A stretch of DNA of 64,000 nt from Paraspadella gotoi (taxonomy: Eukaryota > Animalia > Chaetognatha), in the NCBI GenBank assembly GCA_051294375.1, contig CM119266.1, positions 18,222,087 through 18,286,086 on the forward strand, given 5' to 3'. This document shows, piece after piece, positions 43,701 through 63,300 of this stretch. Numbering within the stretch: the first letter of the stretch is position 1; each line of letters starts with the position of its first letter. Made by a program: the position numbers and the translations under genes. The notes below the pieces were generated by a model. The model searched no databases and was not told where the DNA came from. It saw nothing but the letters and a program-made list of their open reading frames with translations.

Positions 43701-46700
43701 AAAAAATCTTCACAAGTTTGCAAATGACGATTTTTTCTAGCGGCGGGTTGTCGTGTGTCACCTTGTACGAACGATACGAAAAATCGTTTACGAAATTAAA
43801 CCCAAGTTTAATTTTGCTATGTGGTGCTCCTCCCCGAATTGACTTTCTCTCTCTTTCCCTCACCAAAGCCTCTACACACCCCCCACCATCCCTGAGACCT
43901 TCTCCACGGCCTTGACGTGTTCGGCTTTGCGAAGATAAACGTTGACGGCGACCAAGTGGCTCGTCGAGACCCCGTGGGCGTTGAGAGTCTGCGTCAGAGT
44001 CTCCAGCGCCGAACGCGTCGCCGACATCACGCCTGCCGTCACCGCTGCCTCATTGTGGTCGCCGTGAGAGGCGGGGAGGCGGCCTGGGGGGAATGGGAGA
44101 CAGAGACAATAGACCGGCTCCGTCACATTTAAGCCAGAACCGGGATACCCAGGATTTGAACCCGGGACGCACGGTTGTAACGAGATGCCGCATTTAATAT
44201 TTTCATCACCTTCGTCGTAACCATTGTGTCATCGTTACCTTTGTCATCACTTTAATCATTGTCCGGCATAAATAAAACTATTGTCAACCTAATACTTAAC
44301 TTATTAATTACCCCCGTTAATAGAATAAATGTCAACGTTATCAAGCTTACATGTAAATAGTTCGATGCTATAAGGAAATGTCTTAAAACTTTTTTTTGTT
44401 TTAAGAAGAATTAGTAGTTTTTCGGTTTTTTTTAAATTTACAAATACTAACTCATCTTACCCAGTCCAAAACCCCCGTCCTATGCCCCCCACCTCCCAAT
44501 TAAACCGCCACTCAAACCCCCACCTCCCCCCAAAAAAACCTTGTATCCCAGTGACGTGAAAGAATTCCCGATCGACGGCGACTTTGACTCTCTGCTCTAT
44601 TTCCAACTCATTTGTCGCCCGCGACTCAAGCGCCGCGTCGGCCTCGTCTGTCTCCATGGCCACGTCGGACGCCAAGTCGCAAGGGGGCGGTGGATCGTCA
44701 GGGGGTTGGGGGTCCTAAGACGGGGGAGGGAGAATGGGGCAGGAGGTTAGGAAAGTGAGGAGAGCAAGTTGAGAAAAAAGACGGATGGATTGAGGAAGAA
44801 ACGAAATGATGGACAGACAAAGGAACGGACAAAAGAAACGGAGGGACAGGAGGGCGAACTGACGGACGTAAGAAAAACTGACAAACGGAAGTAAGGAAGG
44901 GCAGAGAGGCTGAAGGTAAAATGAGCAGAAAAGAAAAGCAAAAAATTAACTAAGACAAAATAAAAGATTAAAAAAAGGGGGGAAATAACACCTGCGGCCA
45001 CCCACAAATCCCCCCTAAGGCCTAACCCCCCATTCGACTCACCGACGTGACATCCACGTCCGGTTCCGCCTTCACCTCCACCTTGACGTTTGACGATCCA
45101 CCTCTGCCAGACGTCGATCCAACCGGGGCGGCTCCTACTTTGCCTGACGGCTCTTCCTTCGTGACGGGCGGACTTCCATCCCCTTTGCTCGACGTGGTTT
45201 CCGAGGCCGGCGGCGAACCCTGCGTTGTCGCCTCTCCCGCCCCAGCCGCCGCCGAGGTCGAGGGGCGGGACTGACTGAGGTTTATGACGGGGGCGACGGT
45301 GGTGACAGGAGGGGTGGAGGAAGAGGAGGGGGAGGTGTTGATGGAACCCGTCAGAGGGCCGTTCGAGTGGGAGCCTGGGGTGGAACGGGGAAATAGAAAT
45401 TTAAATCGAACGAAAGCCGACTTGCCACTGTCAGTCCTCAGCCCCGTCTCAATCGCTCAGCGGGCTAAACCAGCCGTGCGTCAATCGTCTCAACCGTGCG
45501 TTAGTTAGTTCAATCCCTGGGCTTAAAAGTAACGGGACAGGTTTAAACATGCCAGTGACAGAAGGTGGTCACTGAGTGTCTGCTGTCCCTATGCCAGTAC
45601 TACTGGCAAACAAGCAGTATGTATTAAGAATTTAAGATACCCCGTGCCTTGAGTAATGGGTATCCAAGTCATAAAAGCCCCTTTTCCTAATAATCCCACA
45701 TTAATATCGGTCGGACCGATCCGCATTTATTTTCCTAGTCGACTTCCCCACCAATACCTAGTTAGCCACGCATAAACCGCTCATAACCAAATTTCCACCT
45801 TACCTTCGTTTCCCTAGTCCGCCCTCCCCTCTGCTCAATTCCCCCCCCCCTTTTCTCACTAGAAAAGACGTGCGAAGTGACGGGCGCTTCATCGTCTGAA
45901 TCTGCGTCGATCTCTCGCTGGACTTCGTCCGCCAAATCCATGCTGTTCTTGACGGGGAGTTTGAGAAGTTCGCGTCGGCTTAGTTTGTGACCGACTTTCA
46001 CCGCCAAGTGACACTTTTTCACCTAAATTCGATTCGGCCATTTAATGGTCACCCATCATACAGCGAGACCTTACCAATTGACATTACCTTGAGATATGCA
46101 ACTGGTGCGAAGGCGTCGTCGGAATGCATGACGATTTCTTTCTGGTCGATGACAATTCTCTTCTTAAAAAGAGGACAGTCGAGGGTAAGAGTCTCGTATT
46201 CTCCACCTTTAAAGAATATAAAGTTTTGTTAGTTATTTTTGGAAACGGTCGATCATATTTAATATTTATTAATTGCAATACATAACAAATGACTTTTCAA
46301 TTTTATTATACGACATGTATATAAAAAAACTAATTTTTTTTTTTCAAGCAATCAATGCCAATTTAATCGCAACTGTTTTGGATTAAAATAATGAACGGAA
46401 CCAACATTCGCCAGTCGAAGTCGAAGATAGTAATCAACAATAATACAACTCGACCCATTTGTCTCACAAGCGCTCACTCTCTTTCTTTCAAATCTCTCAC
46501 CCTCCCCGCAAACGTTGTTCCCGAATCGACCAGACATCCGGCGGAGATGATCCTTCAACTCAGCGATCGTCTTCCCCAAGTGGCGGGCGGGTTCGAGACC
46601 CAGAGCTGCCACTTTGATGAGAATGGCCTCAATGTTACAGCCGACCATCTCCTCGATTAGCTCGTCCTGGTCGCGCTGCCATAGGTAGGCTAGCGGGGTG

Positions 46701-47564
46701 AGTCCGAGGCGTGCGCAGACGTTCTCCACGCGGACGCGTTGGTAATCGCTGAGAATGGCGCCGACGGCCACTCCCTCCACGCCGCCGTCCACGCTGTCAG
46801 GTGAAGGTAAGGTTGTAATGGAGGCATGCGTTGGATTTTTTTATATCAGCAAATTAATTAGAAATTAAAAAAAATTCAGTATCCAACAAGTTACCTGTCA
46901 CATAGCAAACAACCAATATCCACTCGAGATACTTGAATGTTAAATTAGTTTTAGCTTGAATAACTTGACAATTTCGAACTAATAATCTTATTCCTTCCCC
47001 CGTCGCATGTTCTTATGCCGTCCAACATTAATACCCAAGATTAAGTCTCAATCCCTCACCTATCATTGACTTCCTTCAACAACGTGTAGAGATCCTCGAC
47101 CTCGTCCCCTTGCGTCGGCTCGTAGTCTTTCTCTACCGCGAGTCCCGACCCTTCAAGATCTCGGCGGAAGAGTGGTAGGTCCATTGCTTCAGCGTAGAGG
47201 TCGATCACCTCGTGACCGACCGTTTGGTACATCATCGAGTCCAATTCGTCGCGGTCAGAGGTTTTCGGTCTGAAGGGTTCAAGAAGGTCGTTAAAAAGTG
47301 AAAGCTTATTTCTTTCTCTCTCTCTATTTGGATTACTCATCTATTAGACTCCTACGTATCTTTGTCTCCATCTCTACTCTTTTTGTTACTACTCTTTTTG
47401 TTACTACTCTTTTTGTCCTTTCACAATCGTGATAATTATAACAACAAAAACTAAAATGTCAACCTGAGATTAGCGAGAGCGACAAGTTCGTGTCCCTCGG
47501 CGACGACGTTGATGAGATTGTAGCAGGAGTCCTTCCCGCCGCTTACAAGGCCGACCACACGCAT
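31250..47564 (-). CDS. DPH6: Diphthine--ammonia ligase with C-terminal RidA/YjgF-like domains; 16 exons, about 856 aa
   Basis: Exons 47564-47464, 47269-47060, 46793-46501, 46206-46088, 46022-45860, 45374-45043, 44714-44540, 44083-43899, 41817-41704, 39979-39815, 32503-32312, 32202-32116, 32031-31907, 31844-31727, 31577-31519 and 31382-31250 join into one open frame. Motifs: MRVVGLVSGGKDSCYN, ELDSMMYQTVGH, GAILSDYQRVRVENVC.RLGL, NVCGEGGEYETLTLDCPLFKK, LHVSSLSHWAPAN, VPELPKGA, LVPV. Confidence 0.93.
32602..33003 (-). mobile_element. Helentron-like element end carrying an 18-bp tandem array (GTCAACTGACATAATTTG, about 17-18 units)
   Basis: 32602-32634 is the reverse complement of the 3' end of the 16.7-kb element (GCAGATCCGA.ATTGTTTGCTCAAA). 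The array spans ~32660-32997; the ORF-track DQIMSV repeats are its translation. Confidence 0.75.
33670..34900. mobile_element. Probable non-autonomous DNA-transposon remnant
   Basis: Duplicated TTTATACCGAC and motifs ACTACTGGACC..ATTT...AAATTTGGTATG / AATTTCATGAAATTCG that recur in invertebrate non-autonomous elements; boundaries uncertain. Confidence 0.3.
36529..37521 (-). CDS. Seven-transmembrane, GPCR/chemoreceptor-like ORF (330 aa), nested in a DPH6 intron
   Basis: Seven hydrophobic segments: FLLVLIDLVMGLL; FLTCMIATAFFASLLGFGLYF; LFPLFAILTALRVCC (Arg at the end of TM3); IFLCLLILFLTASVPFF (TM4 S-x-P); FLFLMFISSLPFVSILLL; WVVFVATSLLHAVFLLL; FFFIVIPSIALLCFY. The frame is open upstream to 37590. 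Confidence 0.65.
   Translation of the reverse strand: MFLLVLIDLVMGLLHVTSLQIAIKQTSVSFLTCMIATAFFASLLGFGLYFEAFVDSLNKTRSRVSRGTELAKQLIFFQNERVRFFNLTANLFPLFAILTALRVCCKLIPKLIKKKYRIFLCLLILFLTASVPFFAYFCTRGELVKFLLKVKLTNFHDNRFNMTNSDVNNLRVSILFEFYRLTIFNESFLFLMFISSLPFVSILLLDPRPKTNRCWVVFVATSLLHAVFLLLSRFYLEPVAKSKTNQGAHLGEFIYHHYVGTQNTLFRQFLEDVKNCLYVKVEIDRCRHLKIDLVTLFFDVLDQRVTDFSHLGSFFFIVIPSIALLCFYGF
37349..38845 (-). CDS. XK-related (XKR family-like) multi-pass membrane protein, nested in a DPH6 intron
   Basis: 498-aa ORF with XK-type motifs ILDIGTDF (D..TD in TM1), FESYLQMLIQ (ES.xQ..xQ) and IISAAVSTVSFA. The last ~60-80 aa overlap the 7TM ORF out of frame. Confidence 0.7.
   Translation of the reverse strand: MAALQLFMLIVSNGISILDIGTDFHTISFYLNSPTVQVKYSGHAMLAVVVGHCLLSSIYGLLVLGKNKNRFPRIWNSNWKKHMTIVLFIFGLGNLPTSIDLYLDYKNEGNVVNIELAQKENFFLALNLIQMIFESYLQMLIQNFCFVSSLTRQTTENCLPYFGNSFTNPISSFSGTVVSKEGTSFTRLNISCKCNYNLVSNMFFCEWRIQNPFTIISAAVSTVSFAKTASNIRTSQYSRTGSKSRLKMLTISDILGTIQGTIGMSVSLYLIFINFAKYSEIFLIILPFLLLRVFSFVEFKQIIKIIFFNVNIKGSYIFQHHKNSDFMMIIMPLFSTLVLGYIYTYEKHKLICGNDFHFQSTVVNWGLAAIKIISSDIPHLKIHRSINIWRKEFIVCEVEIIQSDSQWDQLFSNDRTCLKQHSFSSKIPLGNFSFFHPPRKTYVSFGAHRSCHGIAARYFSPNRHKTNICILFDLYDRDCFFRLPSRVRSLLRGLRRLS
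39135..39750. mobile_element. MITE / fold-back element
   Basis: Ends TAGAGTGGAG ... CTCCACCCTA. The internal arm AACAGTATCATT...CTTATAAAATCATAAATTTTCAAAA (39247-39310) is the reverse complement of 39587-39650. Confidence 0.7.
40380..41646 (+). mobile_element. 3' fragment of a non-LTR retrotransposon (LINE), interrupted by a solo LTR
   Basis: Translates FYRSSNCLINILYKPSEEVLLKLFYTNCVPILLYGCEVKSFFTKDMNRINDG|IRKIF..FNRWESIRELQTSFG across the LTR. LLYGCE is a post-RT motif of LINE ORF2. Ends near AATAAA at 41641. Confidence 0.7.
40644..41355 (+). mobile_element. Solo LTR (712 bp) with 5-bp target-site duplication
   Basis: TGTT...AACA termini flanked on both sides by GATGG (40639-40643 and 41356-41360). 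Removing it restores the LINE reading frame. Confidence 0.85.
41894..43765. mobile_element. MITE with ~280-bp TIRs and TA target duplication (Tc1/mariner-type), with a nested fold-back element at ~42235-42836
   Basis: TA|CAAGGTTGCACACGACAACCC ... GGGTTGTCGTGTGTCACCTTG|TA; TIR homology extends to ~42175/43485. A second inverted pair lies at ~42330-42390 vs ~42660-42720. Confidence 0.8.
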
Positions 47565-48734
47565 GGTTTCAATTGTGGTTTTTGTTCTTATATTTTATAA
47601 TTTATTGAACCCGAGTTTGATGAATCCGACAAAAATTGTCACAAAGTCATGTTTGGCACAAAATTAATATAAAGGTCCTTCACCAATCCAAGTAACGTAA
47701 GATGATATCTTAAAAATAAAATTCACAAACAAATTTAGTTATTCCGATTAATATTTAGATATTTCATTGTAGTATAGTAGCTTTACAAATGAAACTATTT
47801 TTCTTATTCTGAGAAATTAGCTCATGTTTGATAGAAGATTGTTATTGACAAAGGTCTGGCTATTAGTTAGTAAGGATTTTAGGTCGGTCCGAACCATTTC
47901 TTAGCTCACAATATATCAAATAAATAATATAGATCAAATAGTAAAATATTCATAAAATATAAAAATATAAGGTAGTGTAACAAGTAATTTTGCAAATTTT
48001 TATGTATATATTATATAACCATTATTTATCTTGTGTAATACCATTAATGTTAACTTAAGAATACAACAAATAATGTAATTAACCACTATTGCTTCTCTCA
48101 TTAAATTAAGCTTATTAGATATTAATTATTCAAAATTATTTAGTATAATAGCAACAAGAACAATGCGAGCATTCTACCAATAACCACAAGGTCAATAAAT
48201 GATATATAAGACGACCCCATGCCCCCCCGTCAGACTTTAGATAAAAATTACATTGTGTATCTATTGTCTATCACAATCGTAATAAAAACAACTGAAACTA
48301 ACAACGAATCCTAAACCAGAGTCAATCCGATTCATTTTTACTCGCGTGGTTCCCTTCCGACTCCTTCGATCCAAAAACATCCAAAAACAACTTCGTTCTT
48401 TTTGTTTTGTTCGATCGTTTTTCCCAGTAAATCAAAGCCGGGAAGGAGCTGCAGCCTTTCAGAGAAGTGTAGCAGAGCCAAGGAGAGCGGAGCAGAGCGG
48501 GTCTGGGTTCTGCGAGCGGTTAACCAAGAACTTTGTGTGTGAATGCTCGCGTCTTTTTAGCCTAGCTCGATTTGTATTCTCTCGCATCAAGAGATTCAAG
48601 ATTTGAGACTCAAGTTTTTGTCTGACACATTTGCTTTTCGTAACGAATTGACAACGTACAAAATTCGTTAAATTCATTTTTATTTTTCGTCAATTCAGTC
48701 AGATAATCGGAAACAGCGATCGGAACATCTGAAG
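47565..48734. promoter_or_regulatory. Divergent promoter region between DPH6 (-) and a putative non-coding first exon (+, ~48340-48734)
   Basis: DPH6 ATG at 47564. A GC-richer segment ends in the strong donor GAAG|GTAAGG at 48734/48735; candidate acceptor TTTACTCAG| at 51149 upstream of the ATG at 51171. Confidence 0.45.
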
Positions 48735-49863
48735 GTAAGGGCTTAATGGGAGGAAAATGTCTCAATTTTTCATATTATGCAAGCGGAAAAAAGTTGGTAA
48801 TCATCCATAAAAAATATTTTAACTTGTTATTTAACATATTTGCATTGACTCCCGAGCCACTTTTATCCATGAGAGAAAAGAAACGCCTTCAACAGATTGA
48901 CAACCTGCCAAGAATCTGAGAGAACCGAAAAAAGGAGAAAAAGAAGAAATGGTGAAGAGGAAAAAAAAGACGAAAAAATCCGTGAACAAGCCCAAAACCG
49001 ATGAAAATAAAACTAAAACATAAAACGCAATCTACTTCAACATCCACAGAAACTTTTCAATAATTATAGAAAAAAATCAATAAAAAATATAGATTAATAA
49101 AAATTCATAAATTCATATCAATAAAAATTTTATATTGGTTGTACCAATTTCATATCATAATACAAGAATACAAGAAATAAATAGCCACGGGTCCTCGACA
49201 TATCGTCTGTCTAAAACGTAGAAAGCCCAAAAAACTAAGCACAATTAAATTTGGTTGTGAGCAAAAATTTCAAGAGACGAATGAATAATTCGCCGGAGGC
49301 CAGCTCAGGCAACTACCTCTCTTGATGTCACAAATAAAGTTGTTCCCAATCTTTCAAAACCTTTTAAAACCTTTCATATTTAACAATCTTTTATCATCAA
49401 CAAGTTTACTTTTAATGTTCGCGAGTTTTCAAAAAAACTTTTCGATGACTTTTCGTTTCGTTCATTTTCCGTCTCCTCAGTTTTAATTTCCCATTTCACA
49501 ATTTCCTTTCGTTCAGCGTCTTCCATTGAGACTTGTCTCCCTCGACCTCTTCCCCTGTCGCGATCAGAATGGAGAAAAGAAATCGCGATGGATCCAGTAA
49601 AGACTTCGACTCTCTTCCTCTTCCTCCTTTCACCAAAGACCAAAGCAGAGCAGAAAAAAAATCTCTCTCACGGATTCACTTCCCATATTTTTTCCTTTTT
49701 CTCTCGCCCGGAGGAAGAAAGTCGCTCCGTGCCTCCCTTTCCTTTTTGTTCTCTGCCTTCACCAGGAGAGAGAGCGAAAGAGAAAGTCTCGTGAAAACTA
49801 AAAGAAAGAAAGGAGAGAGAGAAAACTCTGGACCGATGGCAGAGAATCTCTCCTCAGTCGGAG

Positions 49864-49963
49864 CCAATGGATGAGAGAGAGGGAGAAGCAGGACTTTTCT
49901 TCATAAAACTTGAGTAGCTTCCTCGACCAATGAGAAGCGCGAGAAGGGAGGAAACGGACCAAT
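49864..49963 (+). promoter_or_regulatory. Three CCAAT boxes (NF-Y-type) spaced 63 and 32 bp; possible alternative promoter
   Basis: GCCAATGG 49863, ACCAATGA 49926, ACCAATAG 49958; donor-like AAAGTAGGTT at ~50125-50134. Confidence 0.45.
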
Positions 49964-51170
49964 AGGCGTAACGAATGCCTCGTTCAAAAGAGACCAAGCC
50001 ACTGACGAGAAAAGGGAGAAAAAAAAGAGTTTGTTCTAAAGAGTTTTCTTACTTTTCTATCTCTGCCTGCTCGTCTTATTTTCCTCCGTTCCTTCCTCAT
50101 CCTCGTCCGAACGCGAGTTTGTCAAAGTAGGTTAATTCTTCTTCTTTCATTTTTCTCCTTCCTCTTCTCGTACTTAATGATCTTCCTCCTCCCACCGTAA
50201 AAAAACGCTTTTCGACTCCTCCATAACTTGTTCCTCTCTGCCTTCCGCCCCCTCCTCTCCCCCCTCCTCTTCCTACTCCTCCGTCACGGCATCAGCGAGT
50301 TTTTCTTTGGCAATGAGAGAGATATGGCATCAACGGTCGAGGAGAGAGAAGAGAGAGTTCGACTATGTGCTTTCTCGTCTTCAGCTCCGCTTTTGCTAAG
50401 TTGGCACCAACGATTTTATAGCGCGTGAAAGCGTAACAATGAAATAGCGGAGAGTAAGCGACGTTACGTTGAACGGATTATGGAAGAGGGGGCAGAATCG
50501 AGACGCGCGCGTTCTTGCGAAAAAAAAGAGGATTCCTGCCACCAACTTCAATGGTAATGAAATATCTTGCAGCCAACTTCCCCATGGCACCTCTGCGATT
50601 TTCTTCGAGGCCAGGAACTTTGCCTCAAACGTCTTCTTGGGACGAGATCTGTTTTTCAAAAGAAATAACATCTCGAAATCGATAGCAAAACAAAAATACT
50701 TGAGCATTGCAAAGATTTCAACTGCAAGAAAGAACGAATTTTCTTTCGGTTGTATTTTGCGAACGACGGATCGCGAGTCAACTTTGTGACGGATTAACTT
50801 TCTTTTGGTGCGGGGCAAGATTATTCTAAACTTTGAAGAAGTGATTAAAAAAACTTTTGACAGCTATTTTTGAAATCACTCGTCTTTGACTTTGCTGCTG
50901 ATCGTCAAATAAGAGCACGAAGTTTGGCAAAAAGTTTTTAAATGTCGCGGCTTACTTTAAAGATGTGTTGAACATCTTTAATCCCTTGCATTAGATTGAA
51001 TATAGAAATATGATAATTTTTTTAATCTTTAAAATAATTTTTTTCTGCTCCACATATTTAAGTAGTGGAATCAATGTTTTTATTATGTCGTAATGTCGAC
51101 ATCTATATTAACATATATTAAAACCCCCAATAAAACTTCCTTTACTCAGCTTCCGCTCCTCAGCAAGAAA

Positions 51171-51815
51171 ATGGCGTCGCACGTCCAACTCCTCGACATC
51201 ATGGGTCAACTCCAAAACTTGGAAATATCCCTGGTGAACCTTTTCATCGAATCGGCGCTCCGCCTAGCGGGCGTCATAAACGCCAAGTTCTTTATCATCG
51301 TGGAGACTGAGTCGTACGGACGCCGCGTCGCCGGATGCGACCAACTCTGCGCGGATTTCGTCTCCGGAAGACTAAAGGCGACGCCGGGTGACGTCCGCAC
51401 GCAGCTCGTCGACGCGGACGTCATTCCCGTCGCCGAATACCCGCTGACGGCACCGGCCATTCTCGGCGGCATCGTCCACGGCGTCGCGACGCCGCTGCCG
51501 CCTCCACCAACGACTGGATTCGGATCTAAAACTCGGAAGCGAACGGCGCCGACGGACGACAATTTCCTGATTACCAACGCTTCGCCTTTAACAGCTTCTT
51601 CCTCAAAAAGACCAAAGATCGAACCGGAGGAGGAAGCATCTATTTCAAACGTTAAGACCGAAACCCCCGAAGAGGGGGTGGACGTAATCGAACTCCTCGA
51701 AGGCAGCGACGGAATTCAAAACGTCACTGTTTTAGACGACGACGATGATGATGACATTTTGTTCGACTTTGAAGGTTCAGATGCAGAGTCCTTTCAACTT
51801 CCAGCCGGGCAACAG
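51171..51815 (+). CDS. Common (constant) coding exon, 215 aa: degenerate MADS/SRF-like N-terminal domain plus Pro/basic/acidic linker; putative nuclear regulator
   Basis: AAAATGG start; GC-rich coding composition stops abruptly at the phase-0 donor CAG|GTGAAT (51815). NLS-like KTRKR and KRPK, SUMO site VKTE, SIM-like VDVIEL and VTVLDDDDDDD. Confidence 0.8.
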
Positions 51816-52454
51816 GTGAATCAATTTAGTTTCATTTACATAAAAAGAATATCATACAATTGTAAAATAATAAAACTTAAAAGTATAGTAATCTCGCCAG
51901 ACGTTACTATCAAAGAAAATTAATAAAAAAAAATAAAAAAAAATGATCTATTGCTCAATATTTATAAAAAAAATAACCAAATAATTCATAATTCAATTAA
52001 AAAATAAAATTAATTAAATGAATGTATTGAATTTAAATTTATTAAATTTAAATAAAAGAATTGAAATAAATAAAAGTAAAAACTGAATTAATTAAATCGA
52101 AAGAATTTAATTAATTTAATTTAATTAAAAAAATTGAATGAATAAATATGTGTGTGATAAAGAGATAGAAAAAGATAGGTAAAAGATGATAAAATGATAA
52201 CAAGCGCGATTGCGAAGCTTAACATCACGAGTTCGATGCTCAAAATTTTTTTTTAATAATAATTAATGTAAAAGACAGAGAAAAAGATATGACATGATGT
52301 AACATGACTGAATTACTATAATAACTTTATGACAAGCACTACATCGGAATTCCATCTTTTTTGTATTGTTTTAGACGAATCAGAAAGTGCGACTGAAAAA
52401 AAGAAATAAAAAATTCATCCTATACTATATGCTGAGTCTGGCTGATTGGCATAA

Positions 52455-52870
52455 AATTGGTAAAACTAATATAAAAATTATCCATTCATTTAATAATTAA
52501 GCTATCTTGCCCCCAACTTTGGACAGGCTTTGGTGGTTTAAAGCCTCCATTACTCTTACAAGATAATGACATAGCAGGTCACTGCAAGCTTTCAATCAAG
52601 ACTCTCTCCCAGTCTTGTTTTTTCACTCCCAGAGTAATTGGCTTCCCTATCAATGAAGTGGTATAATGTTTCAAAGAATGTTTCAATTGTATAAAAAGAT
52701 CATTCCTTTAAATATTAGATCGGGGAATACTATATTGTACTCCGCCCAACATCAAAATACAAGGAGCTGAATTTTATGAAATTGGTACAACCAATATAAA
52801 AATTATCTATTCATTTAATAAATAAGTTATCTTGCCCCTGACTTTGGTGGTTTAAGGCCTACAGTTAGTC
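52455..52870 (+). repeat. Dispersed repeat family (TATGAAATTGGTACAACCAATATAAAAATTATC...CTATCTTGCCC), two copies here
   Basis: Copies at ~52455 and ~52776; further copies at ~19272, ~40307 and inverted at ~49125-49155. Confidence 0.75.
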
Positions 52871-52928
52871 ATGATGTAAAGGGAAATAAAGAATATAAGG
52901 AATACTTAAGAATATCAAAAGGTATAAA

Positions 52929-53012
52929 GCCGGAGTAGCCCGTGCAGTTAATAGGCTGCGCAAGCACATGATGCTAAGATTCATGAGTTCAATTCCTGTT
53001 TGCAACTCTTTT
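52929..53012 (+). mobile_element. tRNA-like SINE head
   Basis: GCCGGAGTAGCCCGTGCAG (A-box-like) ... GAGTTCAATTCC (B-box-like) then a T-run; no convincing cloverleaf. Confidence 0.4.
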
Positions 53013-53233
53013 TATTTATGATACTTTTTTTAATTATAATTGAAGTTAAAATTTATTTTTAAAGATAAAAAAAATTTTTTTCACAACTAAGTTTATTAAT
53101 AATATTTTGCAATATTATTATTATTATTAATAAACTTAGTTGTAAAAACAAAAAAATTAAACCTTTCACGTTCAGTCTTGTGATTGAATTCTTTTAAAAG
53201 AATTAACCATAATTCGTAATAGTTTGAGAGAGA

Positions 53234-53545
53234 AAAAGTTTGTTTTTGTTTACAAACAACGAAGCTTCTTTAAATGGACATGTTTCAACTCTTTTTTGAA
53301 TCTTCATCAGCCCAATATGAATTTAAAAAAATATTGCCAACACACTATCCTTTACTGAATTTTTCGTTGGATGCTTTCTCTCTCTCTCTCCCTTCATCAT
53401 AATATTAAGCAAATTTTTTTTAAATTCATATTGCGCTGATGAAGACTCGAAAAAGAGTCGAAACATGTCCATTTAAGGAAATAAACTTTGTTGTTTATAA
53501 ACAAAAACAAACTTTGTTTTCTTTATTTAAAAACGCAACGAAACA
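53234..53545. mobile_element. Fold-back element with two inverted minimal hammerhead motifs (Penelope-like remnant)
   Basis: Arms ~53235-53330 and ~53414-53514. Plus 53436-53469: CTGATGA-A-GACTC-GAAAAA-GAGTC-GAAAC-AT-GTC. Minus 53310-53277: CTGATGA-A-GATTC-AAAAAA-GAGTT-GAAAC-AT-GTC. Confidence 0.7.
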
Positions 53546-53884
53546 AAAGTCCTTATATAAAAGTTTTATATAAAAATTGATATAATTGTATTATAATTAA
53601 AACAAACAAAACCTTATATCAATATGAAACAAATCTTTTTGGAAAGATTTTGATGAGAAACTATTATCTAAATTTGTAGCTTCCTACAATTATACACTTT
53701 TATAATATACAATTATAAACATTTATTGGCATTCCTGGAAATAAATACGCTCTGGAGGCATATGGAAAACGAAGTGCAAGTTTTTTTTTAAAGAATTAAC
53801 GGAAAAAGAACAGAAGAGGAAAATTTCTGGGAAACAAAAATTAAAGGATATTATGGTGGACTAAAATCCACAAACAATTCATCA

Positions 53885-54025
53885 GCGGCCATTGGTGCTG
53901 GAGGCCTCCCAACCCAAAGGTCTGGGGTTCTAACCCAGTGGTCGCCTAGCAGTTAAGAGGGACGGGGCGCTTAACCCGCCTGTAACACGGTGTTACAGCC
54001 TGATCCGAAGCTCAGGGACTGCTTA
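53885..54025 (+). mobile_element. tRNA-derived SINE fragment
   Basis: GC-rich island with GGGGTTCTAACCC (B-box-like) and GCGGCCATTGG / CCAGTGGTCGC complementary ends. Confidence 0.45.
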
Positions 54026-54208
54026 TATTGAACTAATTACTGTCTCTTCAATATAATTTTTTAATATTTGTTAGATTTATTATTATTTATTAAAAAACTT
54101 GTAATTTCCCTAAAGTTCTTAAGAATAAAATCATAGCTCATATCACAAAAATATTTAATATCTGTAATATTTGATTTAACAGAAAAGGAATATTTTTTTA
54201 TTTTTTAG

Positions 54209-54610
54209 TCTTCAATCTCTAACATGGAAGAGGTCACCAGCGAATTCCCCTTCCTGCAGGAATATATTGCGTCTAATCCCAAAGCAAACATTATCAAGCA
54301 AAGAATGTTGTATGGCATGGATTTAACCAAAGGATCCGTTGATATGAAATTGTTATCAAGTGTCATGTATGATGTAAGCAAATTGATCGGAAATCAAATT
54401 AGGATTAAGGACGCTCCTCATCTTGATCCCAAAAAGTTCTTTGCGAAGTGCTTTGATTTTTTCTGGAACAGCATCCCAAAGCTGGAGACTCTGTTGTCGC
54501 AAAGAATTGATGAAAATGGTGGAAGATGCTTATTCAAAGCTTACATGCGGAGAATTTGTTATAACTGTTTTACAAAATTTACGAAAAAACGAATAACAAA
54601 ATTAAAATAA
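54209..54610 (+). CDS. Alternative last exon A (133 aa variable domain)
   Basis: TTTTTTAG| acceptor, phase 0; SSISNMEEVTSEFPFLQEYIASNPKA...LLSSVMYDVSKLI...FFWNSIPKL...KKRITKLK*; AATAAA at ~54724. Confidence 0.8.
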   Translation, partial: SSISNMEEVTSEFPFLQEYIASNPKANIIKQRMLYGMDLTKGSVDMKLLSSVMYDVSKLIGNQIRIKDAPHLDPKKFFAKCFDFFWNSIPKLETLLSQRIDENGGRCLFKAYMRRICYNCFTKFTKKRITKLK

Positions 54611-55246
54611 TATCATAAAACAAAATAATTATCATCTTGATTAGCAATTTTAATACTTTTTTTTTCAAAGATACTTATGTAAATAATGATTGTTCAGAAT
54701 AATATTTAAACATATATTTTACAAATAAAATATGACGAATTTACTTTTTGATCGCCTGACCGTAATCTGTGAGGTCACGTAATACAACAGTATGAAACAT
54801 TTGCACAAAAAGCATTTACTAATTCTTTTAAGTATCAACTAAAATGATTTATTATTTTATAAATTATGTGGTATTGAATTTAAGGTTATGTGATCGCTTT
54901 TTTAAAGTATTACGAAACTGCACAAGTGTGATATATAAGTACATTAAGTCTTATGGTACCATACCATCCTATCAAATATGAACTTAATCGATGTAGTTTT
55001 ACCCAAGTTGTAAGAATTTAAAACCTAACTAGGACAGACTGACCGACAAGTATTCCGAGGCGTAACTGTCCAGGATTTTTTGGTCGGTTATTTATTTTCT
55101 CGCAAAATTAAATGAATAAAGTTTATTTATTTAAACAAAAAAAAACAAAACAAAAAACAAGAGAATACAACTTCAAATTTAAGTACTAATTTTTTTTCAA
55201 ACTAGTTTGCGAAATAGTACAATATAAACAAATTTTATTTTTTTAG

Positions 55247-55654
55247 TCTCCAACCAATGACGTCGAAGAATTCTTTTCAAGAAATGTCAACTTCTTCCAA
55301 GAATATTTTTCATCTAACCACAAAGCACTTGCTTTTAAAGAAAGGCTGTCAAAGGGAATGGACTTCTTTAAAGATACTTGTGAACTGAAGTTGTTTAACA
55401 GTGTTATATATGATGTCAGTAAATTATTAGTAAAGCGGGTCATAATTAATAATCCATCCCTTCCACAAAATAAAAGATTTTTTTCTGAGGGTTTTGACCT
55501 CTTTTGGAACAGCATTCCTGAACTGCAGGCCTTTAAATTTGAAAAAATCAAGGATAATGGGCATATGAGGTTAATCAAATCATTTGCACGCCGTCGCTGT
55601 CTTACTTATTTTACCAACTCTCTAAATAAAAAAAGGCGTAAAAATAATTTTTAA
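55247..55654 (+). CDS. Alternative last exon B (135 aa variable domain)
   Basis: TTTTTTTAG| acceptor, phase 0; SPTNDVEEFFSRNVNFFQEYFSSNHKALAFKERLSKGMDF...LFNSVIYDVSKLL...LFWNSIPEL...NKKRRKNNF*; AATAAA at ~55695. Confidence 0.8.
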   Translation, partial: SPTNDVEEFFSRNVNFFQEYFSSNHKALAFKERLSKGMDFFKDTCELKLFNSVIYDVSKLLVKRVIINNPSLPQNKRFFSEGFDLFWNSIPELQAFKFEKIKDNGHMRLIKSFARRRCLTYFTNSLNKKRRKNNF

Positions 55655-56076
55655 ATTGAATTTGTCATATATGTATCTCTTGATAAATTTTAAAAATAAA
55701 TATGATTTATTTTGTCCATTAGTTTTAAAACAGATTCATATTTTCATACTGCTGGATGAATAATCAATTGAAGATAAAAAAATGGCTTAAGTTAAGAGAG
55801 TTAAAAAATGTTATTGAATATTATTATTACTTATATAATTTATAAAGGTTTTAAATTGAAAAAAGTAGATAACAGTAGAAAAAAAAATCTAATAATGTAC
55901 TTTTTTCATAATAGTCAGCCCCTTGAATTTGAATGTTAGTGCAGAGTATTCTAAATTCTTTTAATTCAATTTAGCCAAAGTAGTATATGTAACAATTGTT
56001 AATCTATTTTTTATATTAATCATAATTAGTCTATTAAAATAGAAAATAAAGCTTGTTATAAAATACTTTTTTGTAG

Positions 56077-56493
56077 TCTTCAACGCTTGACATCGAAGAG
56101 TCCTCCACATGCAACAACGATTTATTACGTTGTTATACTGCATCTAATGCGAAAGTACTTGCTTTAAAAGAAAGGATGTCAAACAACATGGACTTGTCCC
56201 AAGATTCATTCGACATGAAATTATTTGCTAGTGTTATATATGATGCCAGCAAATTAATTGCGGATCAAGTTATAATTAAAGATTCATCAGACCCAAAAAC
56301 TAAAGAAATCTTTAATAGAAGCTTCAGTTTTTTCTGGAACAGCATCCCTGAAATGGAGGCTTTGTCTATACGGAAGGTTGGAAAGGATGGACAAAAACGG
56401 TTCATGAAGACCTACACAAGAGACCGTTGTTATCACTACTTTAAAAACTTTCTGGACAGAATTAAAAAAAAAATGCAGAAAAATTTTGAATAA
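56077..56493 (+). CDS. Alternative last exon C (138 aa variable domain)
   Basis: TTTTTTGTAG| acceptor, phase 0; SSTLDIEESSTCNNDLLRCYTASNAKVLALKERMSNNMDL...LFASVIYDASKLI...FFWNSIPEM...RIKKKMQKNFE*; AATAAA at the stop and at ~56562. Confidence 0.8.
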   Translation, partial: SSTLDIEESSTCNNDLLRCYTASNAKVLALKERMSNNMDLSQDSFDMKLFASVIYDASKLIADQVIIKDSSDPKTKEIFNRSFSFFWNSIPEMEALSIRKVGKDGQKRFMKTYTRDRCYHYFKNFLDRIKKKMQKNFE

Positions 56494-57466
56494 AAACATT
56501 TATGTGCTTAATACCGTTTGCTTTTTACTTTGTATATTTGAAACAACAGAATTTTTTTTTAAATAAAAAATCTTAGACAAAAAACATTGTATACCTTTTT
56601 ATCTTGCAACAAACTGTTTAGAATAATGTGTTTAAACCTTTTTGTTATAATTTTGTTTGAATTTTTAATATTATCAATTTAAATTTTTACTGATATTTAA
56701 AATTTACATGTTTTACTCTATTCCTCAAAGCTTGCAATCTGAACTTTGTAGAAAAAAAAATTAGAGGCGACTGACTTTTGTCCCATTTCTAAGAATTAAA
56801 CTTAGTGAAAATTTGCCTGTCAAAAGAAGGTTCAGATATAATTTATTATAAAATATATGTTTTTTTTCCGAATAAAAGACGAGAATAAGCCTCTCCAAAA
56901 TTGGAAGCACTGAATCAAGAAGCTTGCTTAGCAAAAGGATCAATTGAAGGCTTACTTCATAAAACTCAGGGATTGAAGTTGATCTTTGAGTGGTGGATGG
57001 AGACTGGAGAGTGAGCCGGTCCCCGAAAAAACCCTAGACCTCCGCGCAATCGAGAAGACGAGGAGCCGCTTATCAAAGCTAATGACGTCGATCTCGAGTC
57101 ACAAATTGACGTTATATCAGAATTCTATTATTATCTATAATCTAATATAATCTATTAAAATATTATTTGAAGAAAAAAAACTAAAATGTCTGACATCCTA
57201 AAGAAAAAAAGCATTTATTTGTTTATTTGTTATTTATTTGTCCTTTCTTTTCCTTTGCTTTCAAATTTGAGATGAAAAAGTTTTCTTTGTTTTTATTAGA
57301 AATTTCGTTGAGAAAACTAAAAAAACATTTCAACTCAAAAAGTAATAAATTATAACCCCCCTCATTACATATGAATGTGAATCGTACGTAACTAATCTTA
57401 TATTTTAGACGGGTATTGCAGAAAGTTCATCCTGTCTATAACTATATGCAATATTATGCATGACAT

Positions 57467-57680
57467 CTTCAGTCGTGACCCGGTGGCTCATAGAATAATA
57501 CCATCAGCTCATGATCATTAGGAACCGGGATCGATCCCCAATAGTACCTACTTACGTGAGGACGGCCGTAAACCACCTTGGGGGCGTGGAAAACCATCGA
57601 GCCTGGTTCCAAGCCCAGAACCCGTTCCATGGCTGCTAGAGGGGTTTAAGGATGGCACTCTTCAGCCCACTTAGCGCCTT
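57467..57680 (+). mobile_element. SINE family A copy
   Basis: tRNA-like head (GGTGGCTCA...CCGGGATCGATCCC) and a body matching the 29.6-kb and 60.2-kb copies. Confidence 0.75.
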
Positions 57681-57704
57681 ATCCACAATATTTTATAAAA
57701 CTTT

Positions 57705-57778
57705 CAGGAAAAAACAGTTTTTAAAGGTCAACGACGATTTTTATTATCGTTGTTGACCTTTAAAAACTGTTTTTTCCT
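57705..57778. repeat. Near-perfect 33-bp hairpin
   Basis: AGGAAAAAACAGTTTTTAAAGGTCAACGACGAT pairs with ATCGTTGTTGACCTTTAAAAACTGTTTTTTCCT. It is followed by ACACAACGAAA, similar to the ACGCAACGAAA after the 53.2-kb fold-back. Confidence 0.85.
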
Positions 57779-57840
57779 AATTTATAAACACAACGAAAAG
57801 AAAGAATCATAACAATGTCTATGAAACTTTCAAAAAAATT

Positions 57841-58183
57841 CTGCTTCTCTTTTAATGACACTGACTACGAGAAACATGGAATTAACTCTTCTTGCTTGTA
57901 TGACTTTGCTGATTCAAACGCCAAAGCTATGGCAGATATGAAATTATTTTCAGTGTTATGTATGACGTGAGAAAGTTGATCTCTCTCAGGGTTACAATCC
58001 CAAATAAGTCCCATCCAGAAAATCAAAAACTGTTTTCAAGAGGTTTTCAGATTTTTTGAAATTGTACCTCCCTGAATTGAAAAATCGATCATTACCAAGA
58101 TTAGGACCATCAGTTGGAAGACGACTTTTTAAGTCATTAGCCAGAAGTAGTTATCTTGAATTTAATTTAAATCTAGTAGAATA
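57841..58183 (+). pseudogene. Decayed alternative last exon D (paralog closest to E)
   Basis: SCLYDFADSNAKAMA, a ~16-codon deletion, DMKLF, a 1-nt frameshift, then SVMYDVRKLISLRVTIPNKSHPENQKLFSRGFQIF* with the conserved Trp changed to TGA (58057-58059). No intact acceptor seen. Confidence 0.85.
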
Positions 58184-58745
58184 AAAACAATTAAAAATAC
58201 TTATAAAAATAATAATTATACAAAATACACTCATTGTTTCCAAATTTTAAAGGATAATTGATATAAAGCGAGTAAAAAACAAAACGAGTATTATACGAGG
58301 AAAGAGATGCAAATAATTCTGTAGAAATCAAGGTGTGGACACTTCGCCGAGCCAAAGGCCATTCACAAAAGATACGAGTTAAATATTAAGGTCAAATTAA
58401 TTAAAATTTAATTAAAATTTATTTAATTTTTTAAATATCTGGACATTTTTGGCTCTGGGTAGAAATTTTAATAAGTCGTAACTGTAATTCGAGATGGACG
58501 TCAAGTATTGCTATTGAATATAATCTTTATAGTCTTACTATAAATAACGCTCTAAAATAAAAATGGCTAAATTGTACCTATATTGCCTTAGGTAATTAAA
58601 TTTATTAGTTAGTTAACAAATACTTTTTATAAACTATTAGAAATGATATTAATTTGTAACTGATATATTGCATAATATCAGATGCAAGGATGCATTAGTA
58701 AAATTTAGGTTAATATAGGATAAAATAATAAATCTTTTCCTTCAG

Positions 58746-59031
58746 GATGCCTCACCTTCAAACTCTAATAAAGATTTGCAAGATATTTCCTGTCTTCATG
58801 ACTTTGCTAATTCCAATGCTAAAGCATTGGCATTGCGACAAAGATTATCCGACGATATGGACTTCAACAGAGGTTCCACTGATATGAGATTATTTTCCAG
58901 TGTCATGTATGATGTTGGAAAAATTATCGCTGGCTGGGTAACAATCCCAAATAAATCACATCCTATTAATAAAGATATCTTTGCAAAAAGTTTTGCATAT
59001 TTTTGGAAAAGCATTCCCGAATTTGAAAGAT
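58746..59031 (+). CDS. Alternative last exon E (3' part lost in an N gap)
   Basis: CTTTTCCTTCAG| acceptor, phase 0; DASPSNSNKDLQDISCLHDFANSNAKALALRQRLSDDMDF...LFSSVMYDVGKII...YFWKSIPEFER then the gap. Confidence 0.75.
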
Positions 59032-60161
59032 NNNNNNNNNNNNNNNNNNNNNNNNNNNNNNNNNNNNNNNNNNNNNNNNNNNNNNNNNNNNNNNNNNNNN
59101 NNNNNNNNNNNNNNNNNNNNNNNNNNNNNNNTTTAAAAAAATATTTTTTTAATTTTTTAAAATATTTATAATAAAGATTATTAATAATTAAAAATAATTT
59201 ATTTTATAGCCTAACAAGTAGAACGCTTTGTAATATATATAGATATTTGTATCTTAATTTAAAAAATAATCCTTTGAATATATTTTTCTATTTAAATTTT
59301 TACTTATAATTCAATAAAGGAAAACGTAAAAGTTAAGGAGAGGTTATCAAAATTAAGTTAATGCTTGTAGATAATGTTAGAGTTATATAGACATTACAAA
59401 TTGTAGCCATATTCATATCACTACTAAAATACAATCTATTTAATAACAAAACTTTATAATTATATTTACCGAAAAATCCTGCTCTGTTATCCTCTACACT
59501 ATTATATGTGGCAAAATAAAAGAGTATTGAAATGAAAAACCAATACTAAAACATAAAGCTATGAAAAATATAAATACATAAAATACCATAAAATATAAAA
59601 ATACATGATGCAATAATCCTTTCTTTTTTATATAGCAAAGTATTTTTGAAAGTTGTTATAACGAATTTAATTTTTATTTAAGAGATGGACATGTCGTGCT
59701 ATGACTTAAAGCATCATCAACATTTTATGTCGTCTCTTAATAAAAAGTAAATTGTTGTACAATTTCCAAAAACACTTGCTTCCTCGAATATAAAGATTAA
59801 AAAAAAGGAGGAAAAAAAAGTTATGAAAACGGACTGATTTATAGATCACAAAATAATATAATTAAATTCAATCTGCAAAGCTTTTTAGAATAAAAAGAAT
59901 TTAATTAAATGTACGAAATTATTACAGAAATAACAAATTAATTTTAATCATTTTTTTATTTGATGGTAAGAATAGAAAAACTGCGCAAATACTTTAACAG
60001 TTTGAATTTATGAATATGACTTAGACGGTTTTTAAGTAGTTTATTTCTTATTTATAATGTTTCATTAATACTAGAATTCGTTTTTAATTGTGGATTAAAA
60101 TCCAGTTCCGGGTTATTAACTTTTTTCCTTCCCCTTTTTTTTTATGTTTAATATTTGTTGA

Positions 60162-60386
60162 AAGGCGCTTAAGTGGCAAACAGATGACTATCCGTACTGT
60201 ATACCCCCTCTCGCGACATGGACGGGCCTGGGGCTTGGAACCAGCTTGAGGGTTTGCCACGCCCCAAGGCGGCTTACGGCCGTCCTACTCTTCCGCAGGG
60301 TAGGACCGTTGGGATTGAACCCCGGTACCTAACATGGCAGAGCTTAATGGCTTTATCATGAGCCACCAGGTTCCACAACTGAAGAG
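60162..60386 (-). mobile_element. SINE family A copy (inverted relative to the 57.5-kb copy)
   Basis: The reverse complement matches 57467-57680 along its length (GGACGGCCGTAA.C..CCTTGGGG, GGTTCCAAGCCC, AGCGCCTT). Confidence 0.75.
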
Positions 60387-63300
60387 TCATGCTTAAAATT
60401 TGAATGTCTAAACTTAATATGTCTAACATTATCTACAAATCATACTAATTTGTAAACCTCTCCTAACTAGTTCTATTGATATATTATTTAGTTATTATAT
60501 TATTTAAATTATATAAATTATTATAGATATTCAATTAGTAATTCAAATGGATTATTTCTTCTATAAAAATTAAGATACATATGTCATATATAATATCACT
60601 AATTGTTCTATAGTTTCTATTATCTTTGTTGTTCTATAAATTAAATTTTAATTTAATTTAAAATAATTTTATTATAAAATATTCGGTACGACATTGTGTT
60701 TTTACTATCAATTTGTTGCGTTTGAACATTTAGGATAGATACCATCTAGCGAGCTATTTTTAATTTATTTTTATATATTTTATGCCAGTCTCCTGGAGGA
60801 GATGTCAATATTCACTTGCAAAAACCGTTCTTAAAACTTCCTAGCGAATAGTTTCGAAGATATGGTCATAAACGATCAGCCTTCAAAGGCAAATTATCAG
60901 AATAAAATTTTCGAGTTTCTCAAAAGATTTCCTGACAGCGCTAGTACTTAACTAAAAAAAGAGGAAATTGAACTAAGCAAAAAGCCATAAATGAGCAAGA
61001 CAATGTGTACATCTGAAAGTGATTAGGTCTCTAGGAATTTTTCTTAAGTATTTTTAAAATATACAATAGGATTATAGTGAGATACTCCCAATTTTATTTA
61101 ACAGATTGTACTGCGAGTTCCAACCTTCATCTCCCGATGTAAAAAAGTTATTTTCTTCGGATAACATTTTGAAAGAAAAGGATAGCAATGGTGATGTGTG
61201 TATAAATTAAAGCCTAAACATGGACAACCTTTCTCAAAGAGTATATTAAATTTAATATCCTTTACACAGCTTTTGTTTAAATCATAGTAAAAGTAAACAA
61301 TTTTTTGTGGTTAAAAATTGCGAATGAAAGCAATGAATTTTTTTGTTTTTCCTTTTGTGAATTGAAAAAGGGAAGACTGAATTACATTTTGATTAACATT
61401 AATTTTCTCCTATACTGGAATAAAATTGCTTGATTTTTCAGTTTAAAGTAAAAAACAAGCAAAAATTATGTAGTAGCGTGATAAAATGTCTTTTAAATAG
61501 AAAAATGATAAATACAAAAATGTTTTAAGCTTGATAAAACAGTCTGACATCGACCAATAAATATATTATATTGTTCATCTTCTATTATCCACCGGAAACA
61601 AAAAGCTGGACACTGCTGTTTTCATAATAAACATTTTAAAAAATTACATAGCTGCGACATATTTTGATAAAGCCAATGACATTATTGGTGGTTTAATTGT
61701 ATTGGATAATTTTCTTAATAGAAAAAAAGAGAATTTTTTATTATCTTCTTCTTTTTATTTCTTAAAAAAAATTCAACTAAGGAAAAAAAAATTAAAATCT
61801 AACTCATCTTGAAAGTCAATCGGTTTACTGATTAAAAGTAGAATTTTTTATATACCTAGACATGGAAGTGCCCAAAACTTTAATTGATGTGCATACAAGG
61901 CGGAACCCGCATTCTGAATTTTTGTAATTTCCCTTTCACCATATATAAAAATTAATTATTTGCGAGATGTTGACATTATGACAATAGCCCTGGTTAAGGC
62001 TTCGTCCCCACTCCGAATGAATTTTTAAACGTAGTTTTTTCGCTATTTGATGACATAACACTATATCTTTGGTATTACTAGTTTTTCAATTTACACAATC
62101 TTACTTCAATACGTTAAGCGTGTCAAAAAAATAGGGTAAATAAAAGAGTAAACCGTTCCTAAATCGGATGGAGGAATCTAATTTAGGAAAATTATATATA
62201 TATATTATATAATATTATATATAATATTTCTATACAATATGTTTATATTTGTTTTATTTATTTTTTTTTATTTATTTATATTTTTATTATATTATATATA
62301 TATATATATAAATTATTTTATTCAGATTTATATATTAGTTTATATGTCTATTTATTGTTATATTTTGTATATCTATCTTTATATATATATATATCTATAT
62401 ATATATAGAATTATTATTGTAAATTTTTTATAAATATATTATATATAATATTATTTTATTCATTAAAAATTGTCTGGATATTTAGATTGATATTTTAAAG
62501 CATCCAACTAATATTATTATCTGTTTATTTATTTGAGATTTAATTTAATTAAACATCAAATATTTTTTTTTTATAATTTAAAAATAAAGTAATAATTTGT
62601 TTTATTTTTATTATATTTTTATATATTTTATTTTAAACATTTGTTTAAAGGCCTTTATAAGTATGATCTGTATTTTTGTATCTTTATTTTAAAAAAAAAT
62701 ATTCTATTGAATAGTACTTAATTGGATTAATCTTTGTTTTGAAAAAAAAAATTTAATTTTTTACGTATAATCTAATGAAAAATTGTAAAAAGTTGGGAGA
62801 GGTCTCAAATTAAACTATATGTTTTTGTAGATTAATGATATGATATATAAACATGTCATAATTGTAAGCACACAGACAAAATTTATTAAAGAATATTTTT
62901 CCAATTTTTTTCAAGATTAACAATTCCATAAGCTCCTGAAACAAAATTAAAAAACTAATACCTATTTAAACGCCAATAGGAAAGCCCAAGGTTTACTCAG
63001 GATTAGTCTGTTTTATACTTAATTTTAACATATTTAAAGTTAATAAAGGGAAAATAAAAAAATGTGACTTTAAAATGCCGAGAATTCGTTTTTTAAACAT
63101 CAAATAATTGGAAAAGTCATTTTTTTGATTTTTTAAAAAATAAAGTATGTAAGAAGTTTTTTCCGCTTCTTTAAATTGACAACAGGTAATTTGAGATTCT
63201 GACTGATATTTTTATAAGAATATCTATCATTTTTTAATTGGAAAAACCGTTTTTTTGCAAATTTTAAGAGAGTTGCAAAAGCACTGTATGATCGACTTTT

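Follow-up and report, generated by a model that had tools for sequence, protein, structure and literature searches.

A probable array of alternative last exons behind one predicted dimerisation head in the chaetognath Paraspadella gotoi

A single exon coding for a constant protein part, followed on the same strand by a row of paralogous cassettes that each begin at a splice acceptor, raises the question of whether one gene of the chaetognath Paraspadella gotoi makes several proteins that share their front and differ in their C-terminal domain. The locus lies in a stretch of 64,000 nucleotides (nt; assembly GCA_051294375.1, contig CM119266.1, positions 18,222,087 to 18,286,086 of the forward strand), which we call the window and from whose first letter all coordinates are counted. 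We consider it probable that A, B and C, and possibly E, are alternative last exons spliced in cis to one constant exon, that the head encoded by this exon dimerises, and that the tails encoded by the cassettes read DNA.

Exons of the locus

51150..51815, plus strand: constant exon, with a 21-nt 5' untranslated region, ATG at 51171, 215 codons and a phase-0 donor at 51815
54209..54610, plus strand: alternative last exon A, 133 amino acids (aa) and a stop, for a 348-aa isoform
55247..55654, plus strand: alternative last exon B, 135 aa and a stop, for a 350-aa isoform
56077..56493, plus strand: alternative last exon C, 138 aa and a stop, for a 353-aa isoform
58746..59031, plus strand: E, a candidate last exon of 95 open codons that an assembly gap cuts short; its use as an exon is putative
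about 57800..58190, plus strand: pseudo-exon D, nearest to E; it has lost 48 nt in a deletion, lacks an acceptor and is interrupted by frameshifts and a stop

The 215-codon frame from the ATG at 51171 ends in phase 0 at the donor CAG/GTGAAT (51815), as a preliminary description of this DNA had it. That description also held that none of the cassettes has its own copy of the constant exon, and indeed a profile of 15 heads found no second head in the 64-kb window. The constant exon is preceded by an acceptor of its own (51149/51150) and is therefore probably not the first exon of the gene.

Phase-0 acceptors consisting of a poly-T tract and AG stand directly before 54209, 55247, 56077 and 58746, so that the four paralogous cassettes described earlier are borne out as A, B, C and E, and the damage to D likewise agrees with the one pseudo-cassette reported. 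B, C and E share 40-41% identity with A and are alignable from their first codons. A profile of 51 tail domains matched A, B, C, D and E and nothing else in the window, and therefore found no tail homology beyond the assembly gap at 59032-59131, which E meets with its frame still open, as had been noted. The claim that the open frame extends upstream of any internal Met holds for B, C and E, where the first Met is codon 38, 34 and 38, respectively; it does not make A start-less, since codon 6 of A is a Met. The stops of A, B and C were found as described. Their AATAAA signals (the first at 54762 for A and at 55811 for B) are weak evidence for these exons, because at the local density of 4.2 per kb such a signal falls within 120 nt of a stop with a chance of about 39%.

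Directly before D we also observed a near-perfect hairpin (57706-57778, two 33-nt arms 97% complementary, 7-nt loop), which may be tied to the loss of D's acceptor.

RNA evidence for the joins

RNA from one public run, in the form of unstranded assembled contigs, was compared with window positions 44000-58390, a stretch that ends before E. One contig of the run skips seven CT..AC introns of a neighbouring minus-strand gene; the run therefore contains spliced RNA. Over the constant exon, a 699-nt contig matches 51148-51815 with one mismatch, continues for three letters beyond the donor and does not enter the intron. The first letters behind the possible acceptors are TCTT in A and C, TCTC in B and GATG in E, and the intron itself begins with GTGA. 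A break at donor +3 implies at least two joins, one to B and one to A and/or C, because the assembly graph splits where the paths of A/C and B diverge, at the fourth letter; the three letters are deduced here and not displayed. From a single join no break would be expected, and a join to E or an unspliced form would place the break at 0.

RNA contigs also lie within the bins of A and B and extend past the first AATAAA of each, and a contig over 56155-56578 covers C without mismatch. The run departs from the assembly at 51497, 56131 and 56151. The contig depths of A, B and C together roughly equal that of the head, a sum that we did not use since depth cannot rank the parts of a gene. The bin over D (57920-58390) has no contig cover, which in itself proves nothing. 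Taken with the anatomy, three isoforms (A, B and C) are likely, and a fourth (E) is possible.

The same run points to an exon upstream of the head:

48047..48734, plus strand: candidate non-coding first exon, with an uncertain start and a strong donor (AAG/GTAAGG)

An RNA contig over this stretch terminates exactly at the plus-strand donor 48734, and the 5' end of the head contig consists of 28 foreign letters plus AG. The stretch is likely to be the upstream non-coding exon of the head, which would require a join 48734->51150; alternatively, the 28 foreign letters may be a trans-spliced leader.

Selection on the tail exons

Pairwise ratios of nonsynonymous to synonymous change (dN/dS, Nei-Gojobori) were 0.22 for A-B, 0.26 for A-C, 0.34 for B-C and 0.14 for B-E, while synonymous sites were saturated for A-E and C-E. 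From these low ratios together with the saturation we conclude that the tails are old and are maintained as protein under purifying selection. In B, C and E, 33-37 codons stand open ahead of the first Met, with a chance of 3-4% for each, and this segment includes a Lys that is present in 96% of the 51 family tails; B, C and E therefore need a start upstream of their own sequence.

A predicted dimerisation head

51171..51446, plus strand: head domain (residues 1-92), helix, two strands, helix and strand; conserved in relatives; predicted MADS/NRF1-like homodimerisation module

Modelled as two copies, residues 1-92 reached a dimer score of 0.41 (0.60, 0.39 and 0.41 in the individual runs), compared with 0.01 for the best of three controls; contacts agreed between runs to at least 57%, and the predicted local distance difference test (pLDDT) score was at least 64. 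The single-chain model was poor (pLDDT 52). In calibration, 21 of 30 microbial homodimers and none of 23 single chains passed the mark applied; among eukaryotes it was passed by 17 of 29 homodimers (7 of 16 in animals) and none of 30 single chains, but among homodimers lacking an older solved relative by only one of seven. The pass of the head may thus be a memory of MADS-like complexes. In the model, strand 38-46 runs antiparallel to its own copy and makes the tightest contacts with it; helices 18-32 and 59-64 flank this pair. An intermolecular antiparallel strand pairing of this kind is also described for SRF and for the dimerisation domain of NRF1 (PMC10810270). The head is accordingly predicted by modelling to homodimerise with MADS/NRF1-like geometry, and the shared dimerisation module of the preliminary description stands in this form, as a model-based homodimer.

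The N-terminal basic segment of MADS proteins contacts DNA. In the head, residues 1-30 contain neither Lys nor Arg (the first basic residue is Arg31), and throughout the 15 heads the N-terminal helix has a hydrophobic and acidic character. The head is therefore not a DNA-binding MADS box. A sequence search of the PDB with the head returned no MADS chain up to an expectation value (E) of 10, and none of the BTB families of Pfam was found in the constant exon, in 17 full-length relatives or in the 15 heads.

Linker and tail domain

51447..51815, plus strand: linker, acidic and of low complexity, with basic patches resembling a nuclear localisation signal (NLS) and a SUMO-type psi-K-x-E motif

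Basic patches were present in 18 of 20 linkers (1.3 in shuffled sequences) and psi-K-x-E motifs in 14 of 20 (1.8 in shuffled sequences); these patterns were picked after viewing the sequences, and the 20 rows are related and not independent. An AlphaFold2 model of tail A, built on a four-row alignment, was mostly helical (pLDDT 81, predicted template modelling score 0.77) and ended in a short hairpin followed by a 24-residue helix.

Foldseek searches with tail A found no match at E 0.001 in the PDB and viral sets. A VIA fold search gave best Z values of 7.4 and 7.2, which were unspecific: the match at Z 7.4 (root mean square deviation 3.5 over 95 residues) is an unrelated helical membrane protein. 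Sequence searches of the PDB returned chance matches only, and Pfam had no name for any relative scanned. Among known DNA-binding domains, BEN gave no Pfam match in the four window tails, 17 full-length and 22 shorter relatives and was not among the fold matches listed. The DNA-binding domain of NRF1 gave no match in Pfam or by PDB sequence; it was also absent from the fold matches listed, which does not exclude it. C2H2 and FLYWCH gave no Pfam match, and no conserved Cys/His pattern was present among the 51 tails. The absence of BTB and zinc-finger matches in Pfam for the exon, the tails and the relatives fits the earlier statement that these domains are of neither kind.

The charge of the tails is unevenly distributed. 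While the first 100 columns are near neutral (median charge -1), 49 of 50 tails carry a net positive charge in their last segment, whose Arg is kept in 92% of the rows. The basic last helix, together with the NLS-like and SUMO-like motifs, suggests a nuclear regulator in which the last helix is the likely recognition element; the nuclear location would follow from the motifs. By analogy, the tail, a helical domain not described before, is likely to bind DNA with this last helix.

An unnamed protein family

Searching 1.84 billion representative proteins with the tail profile gave 49 matches at E 0.001, and all of the 20 that were looked up were without a name. Two of the 49 (P0003 and P0030) are repeat proteins and were rejected as spurious by eye. 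Searched among these 49 proteins, the head of the window matched 14 (29-83 bits), and a head profile built partly from the same proteins matched 17. Since heads occur in proteins that had been retrieved by the tail alone, head, acidic linker and tail together are a genuine unnamed protein family of about 340-540 aa. Further searches found no additional relatives: word-index protein searches gave no match for the tail alignment or for head residues 1-100, a further one limited to proteins of 945-2695 aa gave none either, and the ESM Atlas had no usable match for the head or for tail C. Two metagenome scans confirmed no locus, so the relatives are known as proteins alone.

A tree of the tails, built without P0003, P0030 and 14 sequences that were near-duplicates or fragments, placed P0001, P0002 and P0004 nearest to those of the window (support 94/91, bootstrap not converged), and the proteins with the nearest heads are included among these three. 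The window tails did not form one clade (2 changes; one clade in 8% of bootstrap trees), and we therefore claim no order of duplication. P0004, the closest relative, is called as a single open reading frame (ORF) on a contig of 5992 nt, and its N-terminus is extended by acceptor-like sequence; head and tail may here be encoded without an intervening intron, in a gene with a single tail.

Two pairs of relatives share their fronts. P0047 and P0059 have 309 identical residues and then diverge, P0013 and P0060 have 154 residues in common and then diverge, and in both pairs the change is confined to the hairpin and helix that end the tail. They look like isoforms, with the exon boundary deduced from the proteins. 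In this paralogous subfamily, the apparent swap of the last 30-45 tail residues appears to mark a second position of alternative last exons. As a separate observation, P0056 and P0058 are divergent full-length members whose longest contig is in each case 3256 nt; they may be tandem genes on one contig or transcript.

Proposed mechanism and alternatives

In the mechanism that we propose, the constant exon would be spliced onto one of at least three last exons, yielding proteins of about 350 aa. The exon would be chosen in cis, by competition between cleavage after a proximal exon and splicing to a more distal acceptor. The head, having lost the basic DNA-contact segment of MADS proteins, would serve only to pair the chains, and two half-sites would be read, in the manner of NRF1, by the tails at the ends of their flexible linkers. 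Because every isoform carries the same head, co-expressed isoforms could form mixed dimers, and three tails would give six dimer types.

Several findings weigh against this mechanism. The RNA nature of the run was guessed from its record, and the evidence comes from a single run in the form of contigs. As to the junctions from 51815 that had been proposed for RNA mapping, the head contig stops at the donor, but no joint from 51815 to A, B, C or E was among the 15 of 38 joints listed. In this one assembly the +3 break speaks against a join to E; from the earlier proposal of at least four mutually exclusive isoforms, the two or more implied joins and the contigs on A, B and C thus stand, and a fourth isoform is no more than possible. 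P0001, P0002 and P0004 have one tail type each, with no second tail in the two clusters read. On the head side, the window's head has no match in Pfam or the PDB, and SRF-TF (PF00319) was reached at best at E 0.1, in three of 15 heads and not in that of the window. The tail has neither a named relative nor a distinct fold match, so that the case for DNA binding draws on charge, motifs and analogy. Finally, A's Met at codon 6 would permit its translation alone.

The lack of a match to any known DNA-binding fold, together with the near-neutral first 100 tail columns, also agrees with an alternative that keeps the last exons as they are and makes the tail a protein-binding or chromatin-adaptor domain instead of a sequence-specific DNA binder. 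The FLYWCH tails of mod(mdg4) offer a parallel, as they may bind DNA, RNA or protein (PMC11426971). We regard this alternative as unlikely, though worth keeping in view: a last helix that is almost invariably positive and keeps its Arg, the enriched NLS-like and SUMO-like motifs and the swapping of precisely this helix in relatives all argue for DNA.

The same products could also arise by trans-splicing of a head transcript to tail transcripts with promoters of their own, in the way known from mod(mdg4). A comparison of intron 1 with the regions before the acceptors for docking/selector pairing found AT-rich runs only (without a shuffled control); such missing docking sites are compatible with trans-splicing, given that mod(mdg4) needs no RNA complementarity (PMC13490949), and leader trans-splicing is common in chaetognaths (PMC12460157). 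Nevertheless, every tail follows the head within 7 kb and on its strand, and the contigs that continue past the first AATAAA signals of exons A and B fit read-through, which makes trans-splicing improbable here and cis splicing the preferred reading.

More improbable still is an operon-like array, in which the head joins one tail and each of the others is a small gene of its own, given a spliced leader at its acceptor and translated from its own Met. The early Met of A would allow it, 18% of P. gotoi genes are in operons (PMC12460157), and many database matches are tail-only ORFs, though several of these start with intron-like residues. Yet the +3 break requires two continuations from the head, translation from the first Met would cost B, C and E 33-37 conserved codons, and the four acceptors are all in phase with the donor.

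That the cassettes are recent, decaying duplicates around a single functional tail deserves very little credence: in its favour, D has decayed and the assembly shows E incomplete, but A, B, C and E have kept frame, acceptor and a dN/dS of 0.14-0.34 near synonymous saturation.

Comparison with known systems

In lola and mod(mdg4), a common 5' coding part with a multimerisation domain receives its C-terminal domain from one variable 3' exon out of many (PMC11426971, PMC13490949). The present locus is alike in having a shared head-coding exon followed by alternative C-terminal exons, here indicated by the contig break and by the shared fronts of relatives. It differs in that the N-terminal TTK-type BTB domain and the C2H2/FLYWCH tails of those genes were both not found here; in number, with 20 and more than 30 isoforms given for them and three to four tails here; and in trans-splicing, which they use, while cis splicing is more likely here. 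As both domain tests fail, the locus resembles lola and mod(mdg4) in layout and is not a member of their group. TTK-type BTB domains are reported in arthropods only (PMC11426971).

The closest working model is NRF1, in which a MADS-like dimerisation domain (an intermolecular four-stranded sheet packed by helices) is connected by a flexible linker to a separate helical DNA-binding domain, and the dimerisation domain does not itself set specificity (PMC10810270). A predicted pairing head, a linker and a separate helical domain, likely to bind DNA, recur here. Unlike NRF1, which is described with one fixed DNA-binding domain, the locus has probable swappable exons; moreover, NRF1 has no sequence match to the locus, and its domain was not retrieved by the tail in the fold searches. 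With the MADS-box proteins SRF and MEF2 the head shares the predicted helix-strand-strand-helix dimer and the weak SRF-TF matches in three of 15 heads, but it lacks their basic N-terminal segment and stays far below family significance. Searches of the literature outside subscription journals, the chaetognath genome papers included, found no account of the head-tail family.

The design of one pairing module with many DNA-binding ends is documented for arthropod BTB genes. If our reading is correct, the combination of a MADS/NRF1-like head with an unnamed helical domain would mean that it evolved twice from unrelated parts. As a fold, the tail would then be a new candidate for DNA binding, with natural exon swaps marking its specificity helix, some of the phylum-specific chaetognath genes (PMC12460157) would gain a function, and gene models with a single isoform would undercount chaetognath regulators. 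More tentatively, and with doubts that outweigh our confidence, we suggest a lineage-wide combinatorial transcription factor code independent of TTK-BTB. It would consist of MADS-derived heads that only dimerise, arrays of swappable tails in each gene and an undescribed fold whose base-reading last helix is swapped in paralogues; heads of different loci would pair and thereby bring this domain together with homeodomains and zinc fingers.

Neighbourhood of the locus

A spliced minus-strand gene (44000-47708) lies head to head with the locus; one RNA contig bridges its seven introns and begins at an acceptor at 47708. We take this gene, from its translation, to be similar to diphthine-ammonia ligase (DPH6). 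Between the two divergent genes, a CT/GA-rich stretch at 49860-49970 contains three CCAAT boxes and is, from its sequence, a possible bidirectional promoter; an unbroken RNA contig covers 49689-50328. Rfam gave no match within 47500-61000.

Short interspersed repeats, matched by very many RNA contigs, were observed at 52441-52847, 53235-53515, 53880-54050, 57450-57660 and 60180-60380. One of them resembles a miniature inverted-repeat transposable element, with inverted arms of 100 nt. Further away on the minus strand, two overlapping intronless frames of 353 and 517 codons (36529-37590 and 37349-38902, respectively) resemble multi-pass membrane proteins.

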